Assembly: GCA_964342815.1 (NCBI GenBank)
Contig: CAYFHS010000008.1
Location: 32,001 to 96,000 of the forward strand
Source: an uncultured archaeon
Lineage (GTDB): Archaea > Thermoplasmatota > Penumbrarchaeia > JASLWR01
Direction of reading: 5' to 3'
DNA: 64,000 bases
Shown: piece by piece, positions 4,689-16,814 of the stretch
Layout: every line of letters begins with the position of its first letter
Position numbering within the stretch: position 1 is the stretch's first letter
Notes under the pieces: model-generated
Seen by the model: the letters and a program-made list of their open reading frames with translations, nothing else
What the model was told of the DNA's origin: nothing
The model's database searches: none
Translations under genes and position numbers: made by a program

Positions 4689-5678
4689 ATGCTAACGAAA
4701 AATATTATTTTCGTCGTTATTGTGTCATTAGTCTCCCTGGTCTGGTTATCCGGCAGCGTTCAGGCAGCGGCAGACGGGAACTCCACCTCTGGAGACGGGA
4801 TGGATGAATCTCTCGATAATTTCATGGCCGCTATAATATTATCAGGTGTCTTCTTGATAGCCGGCGGCATCACTGCCACATTGGTTAGAAGAGATATCAG
4901 CAAACGTAACATGAAGATGACAAAATGGATTAGTCTTCTAATACTGTTCACCATGGTGATCCCAATTGCGGTCACTTTTACAATTATGTATTATGAGGAG
5001 GTCACAACTTTTTACGGTTTCTTCGCGTTGTTCACAAGCTATCTAATATTCGTCGCCCTTTACATATACTTCCGCAGTCAATCGGTTCTTTTGGTAAAGA
5101 ACGTTCCTGCAGAGTTCGTGGTTAAACTGAACCCTGCATACAAAGAAATACTGGCCTTCGGGATCGTTATTTTCGGTTTACTTATAACGGTGATCGGTTT
5201 TTACCAGCTGAACTCAGGAAACCCCGACGTGGGCAAATCCGTTAGCGCCATCGGTATATCCACGGCGGTTATCGGGGTGGTATTGATAAAATTATGGTTC
5301 TCCACGGACAGACTGGTAATCGATATGAGCGAGATAATTATTAAAAGGGGAAAGAAAGTGGAAAAGATGGCCTGGAGCGATGTGGAATCAATAATATTCT
5401 TCAAGGAACTGTCACACCTGCTGAACATCGAATTGGGGGGCTATCACAAGCGAGTGGGTCCATCCGCTTCTCAGAGATCCGTGGAGATCATAGCCGGTGA
5501 GCGAAGACTGAAGTTCATGGACAGTGAGATTCCTTCATACGAGGATTTCAGAATTTTATTTTTTATCCTCCTTCATCATAGAAGTATTGCGAATCCCAAT
5601 ACAAAGGTTTATTTTCAAAGCAAGTGGGCAAAAGGGTGGTACAGAGATTATCGAAGGCATATGATGCAGGCAGGCTAG
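4689..5678 (+). CDS. Hypothetical multi-pass membrane protein with a soluble, possibly PH-like C-terminal part
   Basis: 329 aa ORF with a signal/TM segment and about 5 further hydrophobic helices, then a hydrophilic tail. Converges on the FHA gene. Confidence 0.65.
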   Translation: MLTKNIIFVVIVSLVSLVWLSGSVQAAADGNSTSGDGMDESLDNFMAAIILSGVFLIAGGITATLVRRDISKRNMKMTKWISLLILFTMVIPIAVTFTIMYYEEVTTFYGFFALFTSYLIFVALYIYFRSQSVLLVKNVPAEFVVKLNPAYKEILAFGIVIFGLLITVIGFYQLNSGNPDVGKSVSAIGISTAVIGVVLIKLWFSTDRLVIDMSEIIIKRGKKVEKMAWSDVESIIFFKELSHLLNIELGGYHKRVGPSASQRSVEIIAGERRLKFMDSEIPSYEDFRILFFILLHHRSIANPNTKVYFQSKWAKGWYRDYRRHMMQAG

Positions 5679-5684
5679 TATAAA

Positions 5685-6596
5685 TCAGGTTCGTGCTCCC
5701 ATTAACATTTCCATCAACTGAGTCGGGGAAAGGTTTGGATTGTCAAGTCGTATCTTTCTTACGAATTCTTCCATCTCACCGTAGTCTTCTCTCCCTGAGA
5801 TCACACGTTCATTGGCTCCATTGCTGCCCAACATGTTCAAAATCACTTCCATATCCGCTTTTGAGGCTTCCTGCAAATATTTCAATTCCTCTTGTTCCAT
5901 CACAAGTTTACGGGAGTTCTTATCTATTGCGCCTACTACATGATGGTGTCCGCTTATCTCGGTGTAATGGCCGCCTGGCTCAATTATGATCTTTTTTTCG
6001 AAGCGGCCCATATCACCTGTCTTTGTTTTTTCTGATGATTTTTGGGCTTCTTTTGCCAGGGCAAACTCTCCTATCTCAAGGTACAGCTCGCTTGCTTTCG
6101 CATAAAAACCATATTCCATACAGTCATCGGCACGTCTCTTGATCCGATCGTGATCCGCTTGTTCCCGGGAACTCAAAGCCTCCATTATTATCTCAGTATC
6201 TCCTACTGTAAGAGTGCATTTTACAGGCAGTGGAATTGATTTGCTTCCCTTGAACTCAACGAATCCCGGAAGGAGCTTGCCATCAATGAAGGTCCCGTTG
6301 CTGCTGCCCATGTCCTGGATGTACAACTTATTCTGGTTCTCGAATATTCTGAAATGACAACGTTCACCATGGAGTCGTGTGATAGCTTTATCACCACTGG
6401 AAATGCATACTTTCTTCTGCCCTTTGCACATGTAGTGAAACCTACCCCTATGCCGCCCGAAAATGGTGTTATTCACCATTATCTCGTGGGAATTTCCATC
6501 CTGCATGGTAAATCGGATCTTTCTGATATCAGCACCACCTTGTACCGTAATAATATCCGGAAACCAACCGGATACTATACCTTTTGTAAGTTTCAT
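5685..6596 (-). CDS. FHA domain protein with a short TPR-like segment
   Basis: FHA hallmarks IFGR ... ITRLH ... IQDMGSSNGTFIDG, then helical ADDCMEYGFYAKASELYLEIG. The start codon is uncertain. Confidence 0.8.
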   Translation of the reverse strand: MKLTKGIVSGWFPDIITVQGGADIRKIRFTMQDGNSHEIMVNNTIFGRHRGRFHYMCKGQKKVCISSGDKAITRLHGERCHFRIFENQNKLYIQDMGSSNGTFIDGKLLPGFVEFKGSKSIPLPVKCTLTVGDTEIIMEALSSREQADHDRIKRRADDCMEYGFYAKASELYLEIGEFALAKEAQKSSEKTKTGDMGRFEKKIIIEPGGHYTEISGHHHVVGAIDKNSRKLVMEQEELKYLQEASKADMEVILNMLGSNGANERVISGREDYGEMEEFVRKIRLDNPNLSPTQLMEMLMGART

Positions 6597-6688
6597 CCGC
6601 TATTATATGAATGAACTGACATATATTTCAAAGTTTTTCGATTATGATCGATCCAGAATTATTTGAATTGTTTATATGGAAAAGGTTA

Positions 6689-9574
6689 CTAGGACGTGAT
6701 CTCCCTTAATTTGTCATACATTATATCCGCGCTTCTCCATCGGGCGGTCTTTCGTTTTTCCAGTGCCCGCATCACGATAATGTCCAGAACCTCCGGTATT
6801 TCGGGATTTTTCGAACTTGGCGGTCTAGGATCGTAACTAAGGATCTTTTTCATAACTCTTTTCTTGTCAGGGTGATGAAAAGGATTTCTCCCTGTCAACA
6901 TCTCATAGAAAACTATCCCGGCTTGAAAAATATCGGTCCGCCAATCGGCATCCTGATAGCGTTCCCTATCGAACTGCTCCGGAGCACAGTAGGAAACTGT
7001 CCCCTTACTACCCACATCCTGGTCTTCCCCGTGAAGAGCCATGTATTTTCCTATACCCCAGTCAGTTATCTTGGGAATGCCGTCCTTGGTAAAGAGAATG
7101 TTCGCCGGCTTAAGATCCAGGTGGATTATTCCCATTCTGTGTGCATATGACAGGCCGTCCAGGATCTGCAGCATTATATTGGTGGCTTCCCCAACGGACA
7201 ACCTGCGATTCTTCATCAGATGTCGGAGAGATCCCCCCTCCAGGATTTCGCTGGCCAGGATAGGGATGGATACGGTATCGCTCGGATAGAATTTTACAAT
7301 GTTTCTGTGTTCCAGAGTGCTTAATATGCTCCCTTCCTTCTTGTATTTTCCAAGTGTTGAATAATCGATTTTTTCATCAAGGAATTTGGGGAGTTTAAGA
7401 GCCACCTCTCGGTCAGCTGGGTCCACTACCTTATAGACCGCCGCAAACCCACCGGAGCCTATCAATCCCTTGAAAGTATACCGGGGAAGAAGAAGGTCTA
7501 CTTTCGTTTTTATAGGTTTTATTCTCACCCCTGCCAGCTTACCTTGATAGGTGGAAGATAGCCTTACGACCCCTTCCCCTGGATAGATATCGGGTCGCCG
7601 ACCTTCCGGCAAATGTGCCAATTCTTCATCACCGTCTTCTGAATATTCAGGGTGGATTTCATCATTTATGGGTGTTTCAAGTTTGTCTTTGAGTCGTTTC
7701 ACTTCCTTTTTCATGCCTGAGATTCCGTATATCTTGACGGCTTTTTCCCACTGTCCTTCGGATTCCAATACTTTTGCCTTCTTAACCAGCGTTCGTTTCA
7801 GATCCGTGCTCATCCCCAGTTCCCGGTAGATCTTTATTGCCTGGTCCAACCTCGATGACTCTTCGTGCTCAATTGCCAAGGCAATCTTCCGTTCGAGATA
7901 TCGATCATTTTTTCGTTTTCGATTATATAGAAAGATTATACCAATGGCTGTGATGAGAATGATAATGAATGCATAAAAGAAATAATTATTCAACGCGGGC
8001 AGCCAATCGCCGTTATCACCAATAAGGTCCCCAAAGGGCCAGTCACCGTCTTGCTGTTCGTCTGGATCGTCAGGGAAAGCATCCAATCTCAATCCTGTGG
8101 TAGACGTTTCGATGGTCATACCCGGATTCCATTGGTCAGGGTAACCATCCTTGTCCGAATCCTTGGAGGCTGCAGGGTCAAAGGGAAATCTATCCCGGTT
8201 ATCCCCCACTTCATCCCCGTCAGTATCGTTCCACTCGGATGAATCGAATGGAAAGATGTCAATAGACAGGCCAGTGGTGCTTTTTACGGGGCCGGATCCA
8301 TTATTCCATTGGTCAGGGTAACCATCCCCGTCACTATCGACGCTGGCTGCCAGATCATTCGGGAATGCATCCAGTACGAGATCACTTGTGGAATTCTCCC
8401 GGACCTGTCCTTCGTTCCATTCATCGGGTGAACCGTCTCCGTCATTATCTTTACTCGCTGAGTGGTCTTCGGGAAAATCGTCTAACCACAAGCCATGTAT
8501 GGAATCCGAATCGTTCATTCCTGGATTCCAAACCTCGGGGAAACCATCCCCATCTTTGTCTTTGCTTGCAGCCCGGTCCGAGGAAAATGCATCAATTTCA
8601 TTTTGAATTCCATCTTCATCGTCGTCTTCTGCCCCAGTATAGCACTCAACTATAGATAGAACTCCATTATCGTTCGTACCTCCCAGCGCAAATAATCGAT
8701 TTCCCACCACAGAGCAAGAGAGGTCCGCACGGGCTGTCGGCATGTTCTCCCGGATTTCCCATGAATCGGCATCAGGATCATAACTGCGGGTATAATCAAC
8801 CCAGTTCGTCCTGTCCGATCCTCCAACCAGAAAGATCATACCGTCAATGGCACATGCGGAAAGGCCCTTATGGGTAGAGGTCCGGTTAACCGATCGTATC
8901 CACGAATCTATTGCAGGAGAATATACCTCGATTGTGTTCTCGGTTATTACGTAAATAATTCCCCCGATCACTGTAGATCCTAGAACTCTGATCTCTGCTG
9001 GGAGAGGTTCCTTATCGGTCCACAAATCTGTATAAGCATTGTAGCATTCAACTACGGAAAGGGGTTGATCGTAATAATTACCACCGATGACATAGATGGA
9101 ACCGTTCACGACGCTGCAGACCGGGCTACTCCTGGCATTAGACATTTCGGTCATTACTAACCATTCTCCCGTTTCAGGATCATAGCGTTCCGTCGTGCTG
9201 AGATATTCTATTTCACCATCGTTCTTCTTTCCTCCAATAACAAATATCTTGTCATTCACAACAGCGCTGCCCAGATGAGATCTTTTCGTTGGCATATCCG
9301 TCTTTGCCGCCCAGGTATCTGTAATGGGTTCGAAACATTCCACAGTACCGAGGGTAAGAGCTCCTGCTTCTCCCCCAATGGCATATATGCTGTTGTTCAC
9401 CACTGAACATGTGAGACCTGATCGTGCAGTGGGCATATCTGAATAATGAATCCACCAGTGAGTATCCTCGTTTGCATTTACGGCTTTTTCACCAATATAG
9501 GGACTCCCCATGAGAGGCAGACCCAATAATATACATGTGATGATGACAGATGAAAAAAGCCTGACGCGTATCAT
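6689..9574 (-). CDS. Receptor-like Ser/Thr protein kinase: signal peptide, Kelch beta-propeller, TSP type-3-like Ca-binding repeats, TM helix, TPR-like linker, Hanks kinase
   Basis: Six Kelch repeats (MPTARS..IYAIGG..VECF..W), DxDGDGxPD repeats, TM FFYAFIIILITAIGIIFLY followed by NRKRK. Kinase motifs GSGGFAAV, VALK, HLDLKPANIL, DWG, APE. The ORF track starts at 9601; ATG 9574 gives a better signal peptide. Confidence 0.9.
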   Translation of the reverse strand: MIRVRLFSSVIITCILLGLPLMGSPYIGEKAVNANEDTHWWIHYSDMPTARSGLTCSVVNNSIYAIGGEAGALTLGTVECFEPITDTWAAKTDMPTKRSHLGSAVVNDKIFVIGGKKNDGEIEYLSTTERYDPETGEWLVMTEMSNARSSPVCSVVNGSIYVIGGNYYDQPLSVVECYNAYTDLWTDKEPLPAEIRVLGSTVIGGIIYVITENTIEVYSPAIDSWIRSVNRTSTHKGLSACAIDGMIFLVGGSDRTNWVDYTRSYDPDADSWEIRENMPTARADLSCSVVGNRLFALGGTNDNGVLSIVECYTGAEDDDEDGIQNEIDAFSSDRAASKDKDGDGFPEVWNPGMNDSDSIHGLWLDDFPEDHSASKDNDGDGSPDEWNEGQVRENSTSDLVLDAFPNDLAASVDSDGDGYPDQWNNGSGPVKSTTGLSIDIFPFDSSEWNDTDGDEVGDNRDRFPFDPAASKDSDKDGYPDQWNPGMTIETSTTGLRLDAFPDDPDEQQDGDWPFGDLIGDNGDWLPALNNYFFYAFIIILITAIGIIFLYNRKRKNDRYLERKIALAIEHEESSRLDQAIKIYRELGMSTDLKRTLVKKAKVLESEGQWEKAVKIYGISGMKKEVKRLKDKLETPINDEIHPEYSEDGDEELAHLPEGRRPDIYPGEGVVRLSSTYQGKLAGVRIKPIKTKVDLLLPRYTFKGLIGSGGFAAVYKVVDPADREVALKLPKFLDEKIDYSTLGKYKKEGSILSTLEHRNIVKFYPSDTVSIPILASEILEGGSLRHLMKNRRLSVGEATNIMLQILDGLSYAHRMGIIHLDLKPANILFTKDGIPKITDWGIGKYMALHGEDQDVGSKGTVSYCAPEQFDRERYQDADWRTDIFQAGIVFYEMLTGRNPFHHPDKKRVMKKILSYDPRPPSSKNPEIPEVLDIIVMRALEKRKTARWRSADIMYDKLREITS

Positions 9575-9626
9575 GGTACCCACATCCCGTGAAAAAAACA
9601 CAGATTATAATTATTTGACAAACTTA

Positions 9627-11012
9627 TCAGAAACCACATCTCTTTAGCAATTCCTTCACTTTTTCCTGGAAAAGCTCTTCTCCAATTAATCCGGTATCTT
9701 TCATCTTCTTTAATTTCATTAGTTTAGCCATCATTTTTTTCTCATTTTCAGTCTCTTTCGAAGCTGCTTCCTTTCTCTTTGTAAATGCTGCTCTACCAAC
9801 TCCAGTATCCCCGGCCTTTCCGCTGGTTATGGCGACCTGCACCGATTTCTGACCCATCACACCACGAAGTTGACGCACCATTTCTGCATTACCGCTTTCC
9901 ATTGCTTGAATGAGAAGACGCTCCATCATGGCGTCCGATGAGTCTTGTACGCTGGTAAGATGATCTTGTGCCATGCTTATTTTTTGCAGTCTTTTCTCAT
10001 GTTCTCTGTCTTCTGACTCCTTTTTTCGATTGTACAGACGCTCCTCACGCTCTCTCCGTCGACCATCCAATAAGTTTAGTATCTCCTTTGCGTTATCGAG
10101 CCTTGTTTCGGTCTCCTTGTGTTTAAAAAGAATTCGGTTCTCCTCTTCCTCCGCTCTCATCTCTAGTTTATGTCGATGGGCCGCGGTTTCTCTGGCCTGT
10201 TCCAGCTCGTCCAAGGTCATTTCTCCCTCCACGGCGGCACTGCGCTTCGCGAAATCGGAATCCATCTTTACTTTACCTGGAGTATCAAGGTTAAGAATCA
10301 CCTTCTCCACGATAATACCCCATAGGCCCAGTGTCTTTTTCATCTGGTGAAGCACAGACATCTCCGCTGTAGTTCTTATGTCCCTGTTGCCGTAGACCTC
10401 ATCCGATGTGTATTTTCCTAGGGTCGGTTTTATGACCTCCGATATGATCTCGTCTCGCAGTCGCTTGCGCAGGGCGTTCAAGGTAACCGCTTGCGCTCTT
10501 CCCAGAAGTTTCAACTGTTTTGGTGTCTCGTGTGGGTCGAAATCAAAACGGAGAGTGAGGGTTCCACCAAGGCAGTCCCTGGAATCGGCAGTGTATATTT
10601 CATCAGCCGTTTCGAATGGGAAATCCAGATCGATGCTGGTAGCGTCTACTATTAGGAGATTTATATAACCCGTGGTTATCCTTTTGCGGATCAATCGATA
10701 ATAATCTTCCAATCCGACATCATTCCGGAGATCCAATTTAAGAAATTTGGCTAGATTCTTCTTGATCTTGTTTTCGTCGGTTTCACTCTTCCAGTGAAGA
10801 GCGTAAACCAGTTCTTCTTCGGTATGGTCTGCTATCCGGAATGAGTCCTTGTCGATAATCCCCAGCAGCTTGCCTTCCTTAATAAAGACCGCTCGTTCCG
10901 TTGGCCCTATTGGTATTTTATTGAAACCGTGCTCGAAAAGGTATTTTATATCCTTTCCATCGGCCATTCTGATCACGATATCCGGTCTGCCGGATTTCCA
11001 CCAGTTGTGCAT
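9627..11012 (-). CDS. SPFH/band-7 family protein with coiled coil and C-terminal SHOCT-like motif
   Basis: IGPTERAVFIKEGK, a conserved-looking SPFH core (..LGLWGIIVEKVILN), a long charged coiled coil, and C-terminal KLMKLKKMKDTGLIGEELFQEKVKELL. Confidence 0.7.
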   Translation of the reverse strand: MHNWWKSGRPDIVIRMADGKDIKYLFEHGFNKIPIGPTERAVFIKEGKLLGIIDKDSFRIADHTEEELVYALHWKSETDENKIKKNLAKFLKLDLRNDVGLEDYYRLIRKRITTGYINLLIVDATSIDLDFPFETADEIYTADSRDCLGGTLTLRFDFDPHETPKQLKLLGRAQAVTLNALRKRLRDEIISEVIKPTLGKYTSDEVYGNRDIRTTAEMSVLHQMKKTLGLWGIIVEKVILNLDTPGKVKMDSDFAKRSAAVEGEMTLDELEQARETAAHRHKLEMRAEEEENRILFKHKETETRLDNAKEILNLLDGRRREREERLYNRKKESEDREHEKRLQKISMAQDHLTSVQDSSDAMMERLLIQAMESGNAEMVRQLRGVMGQKSVQVAITSGKAGDTGVGRAAFTKRKEAASKETENEKKMMAKLMKLKKMKDTGLIGEELFQEKVKELLKRCGF

Positions 11013-11013
11013 C

Positions 11014-12492
11014 TCAGATCATCTCCTTGTACATTTTCATCCTGGCCTTGAACCTGTTCCTGAGTGTCAAAATGTCATTTCTTAAAGGGCTCGCAAGCTG
11101 GGCAATTAGATCGGATTTGCCGGAAAGTATACAGCCGCGGATCAGAACGGTCCTTTTGCATAGTTCGTTGATCCCGTCAAAGATCTTCTCGTACATGGTG
11201 GCGATCGGTTTGTACTTTCCTATATCGATCCCTCCTACCATAGAGCCGGACTCAATCTCATCCAGCGCCCCTTCCACTGAGGCTTGTATTTCACCTATAA
11301 ACAGAGTCAATTCGTCAGAAATTTTCTTCACCTTCTTGTAATTCATGGAATCGTTCTTTTCATAGAGTTCTTCGAGGTTGAAGAATAATTTATCTTTTAC
11401 TTTGGTGATCTCAAGGAGTACCCTGTCCCGGAAGTTCCTGTCCGAGAACATGAAGTTCATGTTGGCCATTGCTGTTTTCCGTTTCTTCTCCATGGCTTTC
11501 ATGTAGCAGTCGTAGGCTTTTCGGTATTCACCGCTTAGATAGAGATTATTTCCCAGGCGGAGGTAGATGTCTTCCTCCATTTTGAGATCGCTGTAAAGGG
11601 AATCCACCTCTTCGTATTTCATGGCAATTTCAGACTCAGAAAGACACTCTTCCATGTATGCCGTTTCAAGATCGTTATCGAGGTCCAGCCCGATACCGAA
11701 TCCAAGGATTGCGTCCGAGAGAAGATCTTTCCAGTCGTCTTTGCTTAGCTCCTGGGCATTTATGTTCATGATGGAATCAGCGGTGGTTATCTTTACGTCA
11801 CCTCCTGCAGACACCACATTGCTGCGGGTCATGGCACTGTCGCTTACCGCTGTCTCCGTTTTACCGAGATTCCCATCATCCAGCTTATCCATAAGCTCCG
11901 AAACGTCATCAGCCATGCTCTCGGTCCTCGAAAGTATCTCATGAATATCCTTTTCCATTCTCGCCAGGTGAGACTGGAGTTCGTCAAATTTATCATCCCA
12001 TCCTAACCCTGAGAAAACCGCCCCGATCTCGTTGGTAATATCTTCGACCTTGAGAACATTTGTATCCTTAGATTCCTTCATGGACCGGACGATTTCAGAC
12101 GCAAGCGTATCGGGCTCTATGGCGGCCTTTAAAGACTGCACGAATCGACGGTCCTCACTGCCCATCTGCCTGTAATTCACCATCATACCCTGTATCTGCC
12201 GGGTCATTTCCAGCAGTCCCTGACCGGTATCGTCAAGTTTTTTAGTGTCCGAGACCATTGCTTCCTTAACCTCATCAGCCCTTTGATTGATCAGTTCAAC
12301 GATTTCTTCGTTGGTCACCCCTACGATAGTTTCAAGGAATCTGCTGAGTTTTGTATCCTTACCCTTGTTCTTTTCGTTTAGGTAGCGGACTGCTTTCTTT
12401 GCACTGAAAGTGAAGGTCTTCTCGAAAGCCAGTTTCGAAAATCCCCTGAGTACGACCCCACCAAGGGCTACAGCTGCACCGATACCGAACAT
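11014..12492 (-). CDS. Coiled-coil/helical protein with one TPR
   Basis: Amphipathic N-terminus, heptad-rich region, TPR YLRLGNNLYLSGEYRKAYDCYMKA. Its stop is 1 nt before the SPFH start. The ORF track uses TTG 12513. Confidence 0.65.
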   Translation of the reverse strand: MFGIGAAVALGGVVLRGFSKLAFEKTFTFSAKKAVRYLNEKNKGKDTKLSRFLETIVGVTNEEIVELINQRADEVKEAMVSDTKKLDDTGQGLLEMTRQIQGMMVNYRQMGSEDRRFVQSLKAAIEPDTLASEIVRSMKESKDTNVLKVEDITNEIGAVFSGLGWDDKFDELQSHLARMEKDIHEILSRTESMADDVSELMDKLDDGNLGKTETAVSDSAMTRSNVVSAGGDVKITTADSIMNINAQELSKDDWKDLLSDAILGFGIGLDLDNDLETAYMEECLSESEIAMKYEEVDSLYSDLKMEEDIYLRLGNNLYLSGEYRKAYDCYMKAMEKKRKTAMANMNFMFSDRNFRDRVLLEITKVKDKLFFNLEELYEKNDSMNYKKVKKISDELTLFIGEIQASVEGALDEIESGSMVGGIDIGKYKPIATMYEKIFDGINELCKRTVLIRGCILSGKSDLIAQLASPLRNDILTLRNRFKARMKMYKEMI

Positions 12493-12605
12493 TTCATCAC
12501 TTCGTTTGGACAAGTATAAATATCCAGAATAAAAGGTGGCTTTAGATTAAATATCTTTCCGGTAAAATTCAAACATGCCATTATCGGGAAGGTCACTATC
12601 TTAAT

Positions 12606-13169
12606 TTATTTTCGCAGTCCGGTTTTTTCAATAAGAAGTTCAATTAACGAGTTCAATTCATCATCTTTCGTGACGTTGATTATTGGATATGATGAATGTT
12701 CCGTGATCTCATTTGCCAATAATCCCGTGAGAGCCACGACATTTTCGCCAATGTTCCGAACTCTGAAGGTCTCCTCCACCGTTCCCAAGTCCCTACACGC
12801 GACTAACTGGAATATACTCGGACCAGTATCACGAAGTCCCTCCGAAACCACAACATCCGTTTCTTCAGGAAATAATCGGGATACTTCTTCCAGATCGTTT
12901 CGGCGGGGATTGTTTTGAATGTATACCGTCTCGTTCCTTGAAAGCGATATAACGAAACTTGCACCGGCCTCCCTGTGTCTGTAGGTGTCCTTTCCTTTTA
13001 CGTCAATGGTGAAGTTGGAATGAACCATTGATTTGATGGTACCAACCCTGAAACCCAGTTCTACAAGCCGCCTGACTAAACACTCCACAACGGTGGTCTT
13101 TCCGCTCTTTTTCAAGCCCACTACAGAGATAATGGGTATTGATTTCTTTACTCCCAACAATGATTTCAT
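12606..13169 (-). CDS. mobB: Molybdopterin-guanine dinucleotide biosynthesis protein B
   Basis: VVGLKKSGKTT P-loop, DVKGKDTYRHREAGA, SEG motif. Confidence 0.88.
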   Translation of the reverse strand: MKSLLGVKKSIPIISVVGLKKSGKTTVVECLVRRLVELGFRVGTIKSMVHSNFTIDVKGKDTYRHREAGASFVISLSRNETVYIQNNPRRNDLEEVSRLFPEETDVVVSEGLRDTGPSIFQLVACRDLGTVEETFRVRNIGENVVALTGLLANEITEHSSYPIINVTKDDELNSLIELLIEKTGLRK

Positions 13170-13305: not shown

Positions 13306-14565
13306 TCAAAACTCAAAAAGACTTTTCTGCTCTCCCGTATTCTCCATTCCCCTGGGAACATCCGTCCCCGACAAAGTATACCTTTCCCCTACCGACAATA
13401 GTTTAATTTTACCATACCCGCCACCACCCCCCGGGATCGTTTCGAAATCTCCTGAAACGAGATTCTCGATGGCCATCACAACACCGGGAAATCTTTCACG
13501 TAATACCTCCCTATTTTCCTTGGCAACGAATAAGGAAAGCTCGGTTTCGCAAATAGCAAGGATCTCCCCGTATATCTCGGTCGCTTTCGATGAATCGGGA
13601 GATATTTCGTACACGTCTCCGATAATATCAACAAGAGGCAAAATATGGTGATATGGTGGTCTTTCGGGCATTTCTCCATTGTTGAGATTCCGGTACTGCT
13701 CACATATATCAATAATTCCCCTTTTGATCCTTCCTCCGCATCCGCATCTCATTCGCTGCTTCCGAGCGTCATCCCAGGAAAATTTTTCGTGACATGAGCT
13801 GCACCCGGTAAGGTGATATCTTCCTTCTTGGGGTGGAAGACCGTAGTTTGCAATAATCCGGTTTGGGGAGTCCTGGTCATACACTGTGGTCCTTTCAAGC
13901 GCACTGCGCAATGAATGAAAATTCAATTTTTCCATCCGGACAAGATTGAATTCTCTTCCCATTCTGCGCGGGGAAGGGCTGTGAGCGTCGCTGTTGCTCA
14001 GAAAATTCAAATCGGAAAGCTGACTCATGGGATTTGCAAGCTCAGTGTCCGCTGACAATCCCAGTTCAACGAATCCAATTCGATCCAGCTGGTCCCTGTA
14101 GCAATTTTCCAGACTGCCGTAGAGCGGCAAAATTCCGGTATAGGGAGTGAATACATGAGCAGGTCCGATGATCCCGTTGTGCATGTGCACCAATTCAGCC
14201 AGTTCGGAGCCGAATAGATTTATTGTCGGCCTTCCCTCGTATTCCATGTCATTCGCATTATTCCTCACAGCGTTTCGGAAATCTTCGATCTTGGATATCG
14301 AAGGAAAAAAGATTATGTGATGCGCTCGGTTTATATCCTCAACTTCGCACTGGAGAACGATGGATATACCGTTATACTCTAACAAACCTTCACTGAACGA
14401 CAGTTCCGAAAGTTCCTTCAAAACTTTGGGGTGGAGACAGTCCCCGCTCCCTATAAGCTTCAATCCTTTTTGGCTGGCAGTCCTACAGTAATTTATTAGA
14501 TTGGCCTTTGGTGATGTTGATGACGAATAGTGGGAATGAAGGTGGAGGTCGGCCCTTACGATCAT
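13306..14565 (-). CDS. PHP-domain endonuclease Q-like protein (TIGR00375 family)
   Basis: DLHLHSHYS, AHVFTP, ELGLSAD, NSDAHS, GRYH..C..C/C.CGG zinc finger, PGGGGGYG tail. Confidence 0.85.
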   Translation of the reverse strand: MIVRADLHLHSHYSSSTSPKANLINYCRTASQKGLKLIGSGDCLHPKVLKELSELSFSEGLLEYNGISIVLQCEVEDINRAHHIIFFPSISKIEDFRNAVRNNANDMEYEGRPTINLFGSELAELVHMHNGIIGPAHVFTPYTGILPLYGSLENCYRDQLDRIGFVELGLSADTELANPMSQLSDLNFLSNSDAHSPSPRRMGREFNLVRMEKLNFHSLRSALERTTVYDQDSPNRIIANYGLPPQEGRYHLTGCSSCHEKFSWDDARKQRMRCGCGGRIKRGIIDICEQYRNLNNGEMPERPPYHHILPLVDIIGDVYEISPDSSKATEIYGEILAICETELSLFVAKENREVLRERFPGVVMAIENLVSGDFETIPGGGGGYGKIKLLSVGERYTLSGTDVPRGMENTGEQKSLFEF

Positions 14566-14939: not shown

Positions 14940-16814
14940 TCAATCCACGATTTCCATTTCCAACCTGTTTCCCACTCGATCATAGGCTGCAATGGAGTTC
15001 TCGGTAAAGGGATAACCGATGATCAGATTGGTCACGAACATGGTAAACGAACGTATATCGGCCCTGGATGGGATCGCTGCACCGCTGGGATGAGAGTGAA
15101 CAAAACCATCAACGGTTATCCTGCTTCCTGCCCCGTCATATTTCGAGAACATCACCGAGCTTCGGTTCACTTGCGAACTGTACAACAGCTCAAGCTCCTC
15201 CAGGACTTCCTTTCCCACTAGAGCCGCCCCGAATTCATTAGGATATGAGTCCTTAGCATATGCAATTATCTTTTTTACCAGTTTTCGCCGTATCCTGACA
15301 CTTCGTCCCGCTTCGAACATAGTTCCAAGTTCATTGTCCTCTTTCAGCCATGATTGCGCCATGACCTCTTCCTTTAAGATCCTGAACAAGCCCGGATACT
15401 GTTTTATCGGTAGGGTCAAAACTATGGTTTTCAGTATCTTTTTGGCTTTGCGCCGCTTCTCCCTGCGAAACGAAACGGAAAGAATGCCCATGAGAGCTTC
15501 GATATACCCCTGGGTGTCCCCCTTTTTCTTGAAGACTCGCCCTGCTTTTTTAAAGAACTTTTCGCTTTCTTTTAAATCTACTCTTGAAAACAAAGCCCAA
15601 GCAAGAGAGGTTCTGGCCGAAGCGAGAGGTAGCTCCATGCCGGTAGTATTGAATATCCTCTGAGCAAAGGAGGCACATTTGAAGGCCAGATCCGCATTAT
15701 CGAGAGATCGGGTCGAATCGGAGAGCGCTACCAGCGACAAGCCCGTTTCCCGTAAATTGGTACAGTGGATCATCTCACTTGCACCAAGCGTGACGAAAGT
15801 GACGGCATCCTTGGGGGAAAATGAGAGAGCATATTCACCTGCAATTAGAGAGCTTCTGGCAGAATAATACCGTTCGGGGATTATTGATCCTTTATCCAAA
15901 GTCTTCAGTTCTTTCAGGATTTCCTGTTCATAGAACCGGACTGCTCGCTCATCCTCCCCCGCAGCTGAAAGCATTATCATCTTCAGAAATCTGCTCCTTG
16001 TAAACCCGTAATTATCTGTCCTTAAGCAGTTTCCAAATAAATGATCTGTGGTATCCAGCAGAGTTGCCAAGGTCTTTTCCCGGTATTGATCGTCCTCGAT
16101 AAAATAAAGCGAAACCGAGTTCTGCAGCATGAAAATGAAAGCCAACCTGCGGGAGAGGTAAGCCTCGGATTCATCGTGGAAAGAAAGTTCCAGCTCTGTA
16201 TTACCGCTCCCCAGTGAAAGATATTTTCCCTGCCGTTTTTTCATTGAACGTCTTTTGTTCGAGACCAGAGAACGGTAAGCCTGAATCAGGAGACCATCCA
16301 CGTCCATGGTGTTCTTCCGGCTCCTCTCTGAGAACCAAGTCAAGGTAAGGTATTCCCTGAATGTAGAGATAACGAAGAATGACAATACTAGAGAGTTGCT
16401 TTCGTCTATCTTTTTCAGTAATCTTCGACATATCCCTGGAATGTCACAGTCCACGGCAAGAGCCAAGTCCAGCAAAACTGCAACTAGCGGGTGATAATTA
16501 TCATCCTCGAGATCGATTTTTTTGATATTGTTTTCAAGGTAGCTGCCGATATCGCTTGAATATTGAATGAATTTTTTTTGGCTGGTATCATCCAGTATCG
16601 AATTGATAATAGAATACGATCCATTTTTCTCAATAACCGGATTATCACAAAAAAAATCGGGACAGCTAGGCGGCTCCGAGAGAGAGAGATCTTCGCTACG
16701 AGCTTTCGCCACAAGGGATGAATAGGGCTTGTTGCCTTTCAGGGCTTCTCTCAGCTTATGATAGGTGGTCAAGAATTTTTCAAGTTTTTTCCGTCGGCGG
16801 GGATTAACCGGCAT
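14940..16814 (-). CDS. TPR-like helical protein with C-terminal JAB/MPN+ (JAMM) metalloprotease domain
   Basis: C-terminal YPNEFGAAL ... GFVHSHPSGAAIPSRAD is an intact JAMM motif (E, HxH, S, D). About 500 aa of helical sequence precede it. Confidence 0.8.
   Translation of the reverse strand: MPVNPRRRKKLEKFLTTYHKLREALKGNKPYSSLVAKARSEDLSLSEPPSCPDFFCDNPVIEKNGSYSIINSILDDTSQKKFIQYSSDIGSYLENNIKKIDLEDDNYHPLVAVLLDLALAVDCDIPGICRRLLKKIDESNSLVLSFFVISTFREYLTLTWFSERSRKNTMDVDGLLIQAYRSLVSNKRRSMKKRQGKYLSLGSGNTELELSFHDESEAYLSRRLAFIFMLQNSVSLYFIEDDQYREKTLATLLDTTDHLFGNCLRTDNYGFTRSRFLKMIMLSAAGEDERAVRFYEQEILKELKTLDKGSIIPERYYSARSSLIAGEYALSFSPKDAVTFVTLGASEMIHCTNLRETGLSLVALSDSTRSLDNADLAFKCASFAQRIFNTTGMELPLASARTSLAWALFSRVDLKESEKFFKKAGRVFKKKGDTQGYIEALMGILSVSFRREKRRKAKKILKTIVLTLPIKQYPGLFRILKEEVMAQSWLKEDNELGTMFEAGRSVRIRRKLVKKIIAYAKDSYPNEFGAALVGKEVLEELELLYSSQVNRSSVMFSKYDGAGSRITVDGFVHSHPSGAAIPSRADIRSFTMFVTNLIIGYPFTENSIAAYDRVGNRLEMEIVD

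Follow-up and report, generated by a model that had tools for sequence, protein, structure and literature searches.

SPFH proteins such as stomatin, prohibitin, flotillin, HflK/C and erlin have recently been shown to form closed membrane cages, and to our knowledge the control of cage assembly is largely unknown, especially in archaea. Operons that combine an SPFH protein with a partner include stomatin/QmcA-NfeD/YbbJ, HflK/C-FtsH and the Bacillus subtilis YdjI-YdjG/YdjH-PspA system, and systems that combine a kinase with a protein carrying a forkhead-associated (FHA) domain include ArnC/ArnD-ArnA/ArnB in archaea and, in bacteria, PknB-FhaA/FhaB and PpkA-Fha1-PppA. Most studied archaea have few Hanks-type receptor kinases. 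Kinase-FHA pairs are established in archaea as well as in bacteria, the archaeal pairs being ST1565/ST0829 and ArnC/ArnA-ArnB (PMC5007285). On the SPFH side, YdjI has no transmembrane helix and relies on its partners YdjG/H (PMC8581546), SHOCT tails occur most commonly on Band_7-type proteins (PMC3581485), and SPFH-coiled-coil-Zn-ribbon proteins and FHA/serine-threonine kinase genes have both been noted in archaeal ESCRT neighbourhoods, in different system types and not together (Makarova et al. 2024, PMC11188069). Here we analyse a locus of four genes, A to D, in a 64,000-nucleotide (nt) stretch of Thermoplasmatota DNA (the window; contig C8:32001-96000 of the source genome, G000), in which an SPFH-fold protein and its helical partner (A-B) adjoin a receptor kinase and an FHA protein (C-D). 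Judged by its distribution in related genomes, the four-gene set is not one fixed module: A and B appear as an obligate pair within a wider, undescribed two-gene partner/SPFH family, and C-D as a recurrent but optional addition to it.

The locus and its gene calls

The four genes are co-directional minus-strand open reading frames (ORFs) spanning 5685-12513, with intergenic gaps A-B, B-C and C-D of 1, 52 and 92 nt, as a preliminary sequence-only reading of the window had described them. Protein lengths are given in amino acids (aa).

11014..12492, minus strand: gene A, a 492-aa all-helical protein
9627..11012, minus strand: gene B, a 461-aa SPFH-fold protein that starts 1 nt past the A stop
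6689..9574, minus strand: gene C, a 961-aa single-pass receptor-type Hanks Ser/Thr kinase (predicted topology)
5685..6596, minus strand: gene D, a 303-aa FHA protein

The start of A (ATG at 12492, in an ORF listed as 11014-12513) was set from an alignment of 13 homologues, and that of C (ATG at 9574, in an ORF listed as 6689-9601) is conserved with a genome of the same genus, G001, the sequence upstream of the ATG being diverged. Amino-acid identity to the G001 orthologues is 85% for A, 79% for B, 73% for C and 71% for D. The ratio of nonsynonymous to synonymous substitution rates (dN/dS) against G001 is 0.088 for A, 0.080 for B, 0.125 for C and 0.126 for D, indicating purifying selection on all four, with synonymous sites near saturation (dS 0.9-1.5). 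Values of 0.08-0.13 imply that A, B, C and D are real genes, of which C and D are the fastest evolving. The GC content of the four-gene stretch is similar to that of the remainder of the window.

G000 comprises 4.35 Mb in 116 contigs (89% complete, 3.2% contamination), and its closest named relatives are marine Thermoplasmatota metagenome-assembled genomes. It was compared with G001, with a sister-genus genome (G003, contigs C162 and C131) and with the further loci or contigs L044, L050, L052, L049, P0010, P0012, P0016, P0024 and P0029.

The A-B pair and its wider family

The orthologue families are small, with 13 proteins for A and 12 for B, and B starts 0-1 nt past A in every contig that allows the test except one. 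Adjacency of A and B was seen in G001, G003:C162, L044, L050, L052, L049 and the P0010, P0012, P0016 and P0024 contigs; scans with the A alignment gave three loci from genome contigs and one from metagenome contigs, and most of the context came from contigs encoding homologues. A distant paralogous pair is present in all four genomes of the source family, where a protein of ~200 aa, homologous to the C-terminal domain of A (hhalign 97.7%, E 2e-12), is followed by an SPFH-coiled-coil-Zn-ribbon protein of ~490 aa. When the A C-terminal-domain profile was run against 1.84 billion proteins, it returned 94 representative clusters, mostly of 160-180 aa and belonging to no Pfam family. In one of these clusters, with 237 members from Tara Oceans and other marine samples, the 168-aa partner gene is immediately followed by a gene for a 352-aa B homologue (hhalign 98.5%, E 4e-15); a SHOCT-protein gene comes next, and the surroundings are housekeeping genes. 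The partner gene is present in 39 of 301 sampled Thermoplasmatota genomes, and a B-like SPFH gene lies directly 3' of it in 25 of the 29 fetched loci (nine Thermoplasmatota families and one Tara Oceans metagenome contig). No published description of the four-helix-bundle partner family was found in our literature search.

Upstream of A-B, a second A-B lineage carries three more families of unknown proteins (~595, 380-608 and 480-516 aa) in conserved order (L044 1308-6389; L014 4219-8741; L045 9803-10519), none of which was found in G000. A C-terminal segment of ~70 residues is common to the 480/516-aa family, a G003 FHA protein and a STAND-like NTPase.

Recurrence of kinase and FHA genes beside the pair

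All four genes are syntenic in G001, and in the A tree G000 and G001 group with G003:C162, L052 and P0017. A maximum-likelihood tree of 51 paralogous kinase domains, sampled from four genomes of the source family and two metagenome loci, placed the A-flanking kinases in a single clade of 6 (ultrafast bootstrap, UFboot, 88; Shimodaira-Hasegawa-like approximate likelihood ratio test, SH-aLRT, 89), which consists of the first kinase past A(-B) in G000, G001, G003:C131 and L050 and both L044 kinases. The A-flanking label takes 1 change on this tree, against at least 3 in 1000 shuffles. Loci with clade kinases fall in two paralogous clades of the A tree, and D-family FHA genes occur in both, recurring in G003:C131. 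With ~21 kinases and 2 FHA genes in 4.35 Mb, adjacency by chance should be rare. Either the A-B-kinase(-FHA) arrangement predates the split of the A clades and was followed by several losses, or a cassette moved between A-B loci; both scenarios imply selection for proximity.

An independent case is found in G016, from family f7 of the same class (L115, G016:C42 8258-12242), where a pair of a 165-aa partner and a 505-aa SPFH-Zn-ribbon protein is separated by a 188-nt divergent spacer from an operon encoding a 245-aa FHA protein (42 bits) and a 353-aa calcineurin-like (PPP-type) Metallophos phosphoesterase. As G016 has only 3 FHA hits in 2.9 Mb, the FHA adjacency there is not easily put down to chance. 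An Ig-domain receptor kinase lies ~6 kb from the pair, which in a genome with ~20 kinase matches may be a chance association. One homologue of the G016 phosphatase is encoded in G000, on contig C51, and no match to PP2C_2 (PF13672) was found in G000, a genome that is 89% complete.

Gene B, a divergent SPFH protein

The protein encoded by gene B has an invariant N-terminal Trp-Trp and an SPFH domain at residues ~12-245, after which come one long coiled-coil helix (~130 residues) and a tail that forms a SHOCT-like helical hairpin. By profile it scores 22.0 bits against Pfam Band_7 (PF01145), below the cut-off of 23.6, and sub-threshold Band_7 matches occur in 8 of 16 aligned homologues; a profile of the B alignment found no SPFH chain in the PDB by sequence, and NCBIfam gave no match for either A or B. 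The AlphaFold model (mean predicted local distance difference test score, pLDDT, 69) shows the SPFH domain followed by the ~130-residue helix and the terminal helical hairpin, and a Foldseek search with it retrieved HflK/C (9cz2), prohibitin (8rrh), erlin, stomatin, flotillin and the MVP shoulder with probability 1.00 and E values of 1e-6 to 1e-3. On these grounds B is a very divergent SPFH protein, recognised mainly by its predicted fold.

With E values up to 1 allowed, the tail of B itself did not match SHOCT (PF09851); the one match there was a weak one to GvpG, at residues 414-458. SHOCT is matched in 7 of the 16 aligned homologues (best 3.9e-6), whose tails align with that of B, and across the homologues the tail varies between SHOCT, a Zn ribbon and a GYF domain. 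Of the earlier designation of B as an SPFH-SHOCT membrane scaffold, the SPFH fold is thus upheld by the model, and SHOCT is matched in homologues only; B has neither a SHOCT match of its own nor a transmembrane helix. Since no clear transmembrane helix is present in A or B, the term membrane scaffold derives from the family and is not something seen in the sequence.

Gene A, the helical partner

The structure model of A is all-helical (pLDDT 71.5), which agrees with the description of this gene as encoding a helical/TPR protein in its first half; as to the second, one TPR motif is genuine and the remainder, by structure model and Foldseek, is not TPR. The N-terminus is a Gly/Ala-rich hydrophobic helix that stays under the transmembrane threshold (hydropathy maximum of A, 1.59), and three further features can be distinguished:

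~residues 196-244 of the 499-aa ORF: conserved Ser/Thr-rich loop, of low model confidence
~residues 313-346: single TPR motif, matching consensus-TPR chains
~residues 357-497: C-terminal four-helix bundle, confident in the model, which defines the wider family of ~170-aa SPFH partners

The TPR_1 score is 18.5 bits against a Pfam cut-off of 27.8, and the motif is present in a single copy, not as several in tandem. A is the long form of the partner family, with an extra N-terminal region of ~345 residues, and the helices of its conserved domain measure 23-34 residues each. When the PDB was searched by Foldseek with the A model, no match reached E <= 0.001; comparison of residues 333-499 with the whole PDB (VIA-align 2) gave generic helical bundles only (Z <= 11.3, within helical-protein noise), and an ESM Atlas look-up of the C-terminal domain gave no named relative. 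PspA, ESCRT-III and NfeD were considered as identities for A and rejected, with no profile or fold match; the NfeD OB-fold is absent by Pfam from A and from the small partners, and the A model is all-helical. A complex prediction for B with the C-terminal half of A (285-499) scored 0.21 against a mark of 0.32, a result that bears neither way on binding.

Gene C, the receptor kinase

The predicted features of C, from the N-terminus onwards, are as follows:

residues 13-37: signal/anchor segment, by hydropathy
8642..9454, minus strand: Kelch beta-propeller, residues ~50-320 of the 970-aa ORF (Kelch_1 161 bits, 5 stretches)
8042..8626, minus strand: five to six DxDxDG repeats of ~37 residues each, a thrombospondin-type-3-like calcium-binding motif recognised by eye
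7928..7984, minus strand: transmembrane helix, residues 540-558, hydropathy 2.64
6698..7492, minus strand: kinase domain, residues 704-968 (Pkinase 147.5 bits)

The DxDxDG repeats have no Pfam match, and surface proteins from the same class often carry repeats like them. A helical juxtamembrane region lies between the transmembrane helix and the kinase domain, in which the motifs VALK733, HLDLKPAN827, DWG847 and APE873 are all present. The catalytic loop reads HLD in C and HRD in ~45 paralogues, which makes C a non-RD kinase, still within the Hanks superfamily. HLD..KPAN instead of HRD..KPEN is found only in C and its G001 orthologue among the 51 paralogous kinase domains, and the two sit on a long branch of the kinase tree. 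By these sequence features C is a derived non-RD receptor kinase. In plants, non-RD kinases are a class linked to immune receptors.

The ~21 Hanks kinase domains in the 4.35 Mb of G000 are part of a large expansion of receptor-type kinases seen in G000, G001, G002 and G003 (e.g. G000:C20), with tandem arrays of at least four kinases in a row (G003:C15:27000-46500, L059). The ectodomains of these kinases are varied, including Kelch, DxDxDG repeats, FGE-sulfatase and Ig-like domains, and DWG replaces DFG in nearly all of them. FGE-sulfatase-like domains recur beside or fused to kinases and beside SPFH pairs (L050 3655-7489; L045 260-2818; L020 10615-12609; G000:C6, C14), as kinase-FGE fusions, as a stand-alone 274-aa FGE gene past A-B in L050 and as a Zn-finger-FGE protein past the pair in G014.

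Gene D, the FHA reader

D carries one recognised domain:

~nt 6177-6524, minus strand: FHA domain, ~residues 25-140 (PF00498, 34.6 bits against a cut-off of 20.7)

Its predicted phosphothreonine-binding residues, G47-R48, T/S73-R74 and N100-G101, are kept in all five aligned homologues. Past the FHA domain follow a TPR-like helix pair and a C-terminal region limited to the genus and one relative, and a search of 5.8 billion proteins returned only 4 homologues. The two domain calls that the sequence-only reading had made here, a transmembrane receptor-like Hanks kinase for C and a phosphothreonine reader for D, both stand, on the Pkinase and Kelch_1 scores and the 540-558 helix of the former and on the FHA score and conserved predicted binding residues of the latter.

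By genome-wide family search G000 has 2 FHA genes in total, D included. The second (a 387-aa ORF; L046, G000:C9:12000-26000, FHA at ~20167-20298 of C9) has no kinase within the 14 kb fetched, and its counterparts in G001:C83 and G003:C15 come directly after a kinase.

Spacers and neighbouring genes

Two of the spacers contain promoter-like elements:

9575..9626, minus strand: B-C spacer, with a TATA-like AT box and a T7 run
6597..6688, minus strand: C-D spacer, with a block of ~50 nt near-invariant between G000 and G001 that includes a TATA-like box ~25-32 nt before the D start

The B-C spacer likely separates A-B from C as a boundary of terminator and promoter, and the block of the C-D spacer, conserved although synonymous sites are near saturation, is probably D's own promoter or a regulatory site, so that the four genes probably form three transcription units.

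Upstream of A lies a MobB gene (12606-13169), followed on the minus strand by a 419-aa protein with a below-cut-off match to the TIGR00375 (PHP-like) model (13306-14565) and a 624-aa helical-repeat protein with a C-terminal Prok-JAB/MPN+ domain (14940-16814); no link of these three neighbours to genes A-D is apparent in relatives. On the other side, a 329-aa protein with ~7 transmembrane helices and no family match (4689-5678, plus strand) is convergent on D, and cobO and then an acyl-CoA mutase gene come after it. Homologues of this transmembrane protein (tblastn, 57-89% identity; G001, G003:C162) adjoin clade-I A-B loci, and four further contigs have an ORF of comparable length (321-348 aa) there, matched by position and size only.

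A possible phospho-regulated SPFH scaffold and its alternatives

We propose to read the locus as two joined units, the translationally coupled pair A-B and the receptor kinase with its FHA reader, C-D. Through its SPFH domain and long coiled coil, B would probably assemble into a large membrane ring or cage, as other SPFH proteins do, and A would serve as its adaptor or anchor through the hydrophobic N-terminus and the four-helix-bundle domain. C would bind an external ligand with its Kelch and calcium-repeat ectodomain and phosphorylate intracellular Thr residues, and D would dock through its FHA domain on phospho-Thr of C, A or B. Phosphorylation of C or of A/B would in this way create FHA docking sites and alter how the SPFH complex assembles or where it is located, with the conserved disordered Ser/Thr loop of A as a candidate acceptor site and a PPP-type phosphatase possibly acting in trans to remove the phosphate. 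In the source family of marine Thermoplasmatota, the C/D pair would regulate the A-B assembly or be scaffolded by it. The proposal builds on a gene structure, domain identities, an SPFH fold of B, an A-B pairing and a recurrent neighbourhood that are demonstrated by the analyses above. We give an even chance to its central statement, that the receptor kinase and reader control, or are organised by, the A-B SPFH assembly through Thr phosphorylation. The membrane location of A-B, the formation of a complex, the assignment of kinase and substrate and the biological output are inferred components of it. A bolder version, in which a two-gene SPFH system was turned into a phospho-regulated membrane scaffold at least twice, by the receptor-kinase clade and FHA gene here and by the FHA and PPP-phosphatase operon in the G016 family, would if true be a prokaryotic counterpart of kinase-controlled flotillin/stomatin platforms, and seems to us rather doubtful.

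A series of observations weighs against this proposal. By hydropathy, A and B have no demonstrable membrane anchor, and B in particular has no hydrophobic segment or transmembrane anchor of the stomatin, HflK/C or flotillin type (maximum 19-residue hydropathy 0.96). There is no phosphatase gene within the four-gene cluster, and C and D each appear to be transcribed from a separate promoter, which makes co-transcription of the whole set unlikely. The G001 orthologue of C (L013, G001:C133) has an in-frame TGA at codon ~573, right after the transmembrane helix, with a Met six codons on; as the contig has a coverage of only ~3.8x this may be a sequencing error, or else it may be a recent nonsense mutation or show that the gene is divided in two, one part for a membrane Kelch protein and the other for a soluble kinase. 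At the orthologous site, kinase and FHA genes are missing between B and the transmembrane-protein gene in G003:C162, L052 and the P0012 contig; the downstream synteny of opposite-strand transmembrane protein and then cobO is shared by G003:C162 and L052, and in G000 and the P0012 contig it reaches as far as the acyl-CoA mutase. In the P0029 contig a D-type FHA gene occupies that site after a 952-aa PKD protein (no kinase hit on record), with A-B not adjacent. The order in G003:C131 is A, a small Zn-ribbon gene, two kinases, a D-type FHA gene and a third kinase, with no B; a B remnant was sought in its 495-nt gap, where there is an 89-aa Zn-ribbon gene instead. In the wider family, kinase and FHA genes are lacking within ~8 kb at every fetched locus but that of G016 (28 of 29). 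The kinase clade itself has moderate support, L044 and L050 were found via A with kinase sampling there limited to the locus, and related loci are not independent.

Many of these points also fit a reading in which two unrelated units lie side by side. A-B would then be self-contained, and C-D would be one of the many receptor-kinase cassettes of a kinase-rich genome, inserted by chance where B and the transmembrane-protein gene converge and with its targets elsewhere. Such a history agrees with the absence of C-D at the orthologous site in the sister genus and two metagenome contigs, with a wider partner/SPFH family that is almost never beside kinases and with the separate promoter-like elements in the spacers. 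It also suits the large, mobile kinase expansion with its tandem arrays, the faster evolution of C and D than of A and B and the position of the other FHA genes of G001 and G003, which likewise just come after a kinase. It does less well with the kinases of a single clade that flank the A loci of two paralogous lineages, for which the odds of chance are well under 1% per locus, with the recurrence of the same FHA family at A loci, and with an unrelated family that pairs an FHA and a phosphatase gene divergently with a paralogous SPFH pair. We regard this juxtaposition as the leading alternative and a real possibility, though one that falls short of an even chance. The co-location in related genomes on which the earlier interpretation depended therefore holds in part, in the G001 synteny and the recurrent kinase clade and FHA family, and fails at the orthologous site and in most of the wider family. 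The stronger claim of a complete circuit on a membrane microdomain is not borne out, given a cluster that has no phosphatase, a C-D pair that is optional and a B protein that has no anchor.

Two functional alternatives would give the locus a different purpose. The receptor kinase might sense envelope damage or infection, with the SPFH and helical-bundle proteins as membrane effector in an anti-virus or stress-surveillance system. The kinase domain of C does match the PD-T4-6, mad6 and Stk2 models, as generic Hanks-kinase matches only; its non-RD loop recalls plant immune receptors, and the C-terminal bundle of A is weakly and non-specifically like CC/MLKL-type four-helix bundles (Z up to 11, below helical-bundle noise). 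PADLOC has no match for A, B or D, however, the neighbours MobB, cobO and acyl-CoA mutase are housekeeping genes, the GC content does not stand out within the window, members of the A-B family are stably embedded among housekeeping genes in abundant marine lineages, and selection is purifying, not diversifying. We consider a defence function highly improbable, and the virus-response role suggested earlier finds no support. Alternatively, the SPFH protein could recruit A, as a divergent relative of ESCRT-III/PspA or of CdvA, for membrane remodelling in the way YdjI recruits PspA, and the kinase and FHA protein would regulate this as in haloarchaeal FHA-ESCRT loci. There are precedents in the SPFH-PspA link (PMC8581546) and in the FHA/kinase genes of archaeal ESCRT loci (PMC11188069), whose SPFH-coiled-coil-Zn-ribbon proteins are similar to B, and A has the expected long helical form. 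Against this, no PspA_IM30 or Snf7 match was obtained for A or its small relatives, Foldseek gave no ESCRT-III match and the whole-PDB VIA-align 2 search generic bundles only, the conserved-domain helices of 23-34 residues do not form the long ESCRT-III hairpin, and the cluster contains no Vps4 or ESCRT-III gene. This remodelling role we judge to have very little chance of being correct.

A phospho-regulated SPFH scaffold at this locus, the reading that we prefer, is thus plausible but unproven. Since some A-B pairs have a dedicated receptor kinase and FHA reader beside them and others lack both, nature provides a comparison through which the idea is directly testable with four recombinant proteins. 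The most valuable product of the analysis is the delineation of a new obligate partner family for a very divergent, anchor-less SPFH lineage, together with its natural variants with and without the kinase, and the locus also documents a large receptor-kinase expansion (~21 in one genome) in a marine archaeal family. As a whole, the observation of the sequence-only reading is confirmed and its interpretation partly supported; the combination is, as it had supposed, not a described archaeal system in the full-text literature that we searched.

Comparison with known systems

The locus shares domain vocabulary with the archaeal ESCRT neighbourhoods, namely SPFH, coiled coil and Zn ribbon in the paralogues and FHA with Ser/Thr kinases, but differs from them in having no Vps4, ESCRT-III, CdvA or adaptin-like gene. 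As in the SPFH-partner operons, the gene for an SPFH-fold protein with a long coiled-coil segment shares a tight operon with that of its dedicated partner, and like YdjI, B has no transmembrane helix of its own (PMC8581546) and would therefore need a partner for membrane attachment. The partner, however, is neither NfeD (it has no OB-fold and no Pfam match) nor a protease nor PspA, but a member of an undescribed four-helix-bundle family. In contrast with the YdjI/PspA system, B lies under the Band_7 cut-off, PF13421 is not among the 25 families listed, of 28 matching, for the 16 B homologues, and no PspA_IM30 or Snf7 match was found in A or the neighbouring genes. An association of kinase or FHA genes with SPFH-partner operons was likewise not found described in the full-text literature search.

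With the Hanks kinase-FHA pairs the locus has in common a kinase gene adjoining a small FHA gene with intact phosphothreonine-binding residues, and the expected logic would be that the kinase makes phosphothreonine docking sites (PMC5007285). It departs from them in that C is a single-pass, non-RD receptor with a Kelch and DxDxDG ectodomain, and from ArnA/ArnB in that D has neither the zinc finger of ArnA nor a vWA partner. Unlike the known kinase-FHA systems, it has no phosphatase in the cluster and no PP2C_2 match in the genome, and its neighbours are an SPFH pair and not a secretion, motility or cell-wall system. Kinase-FHA pairs and SPFH-partner operons are thus each known, and what appears new is the placement of an SPFH pair beside a receptor kinase and FHA protein, together with the four-helix-bundle partner family.

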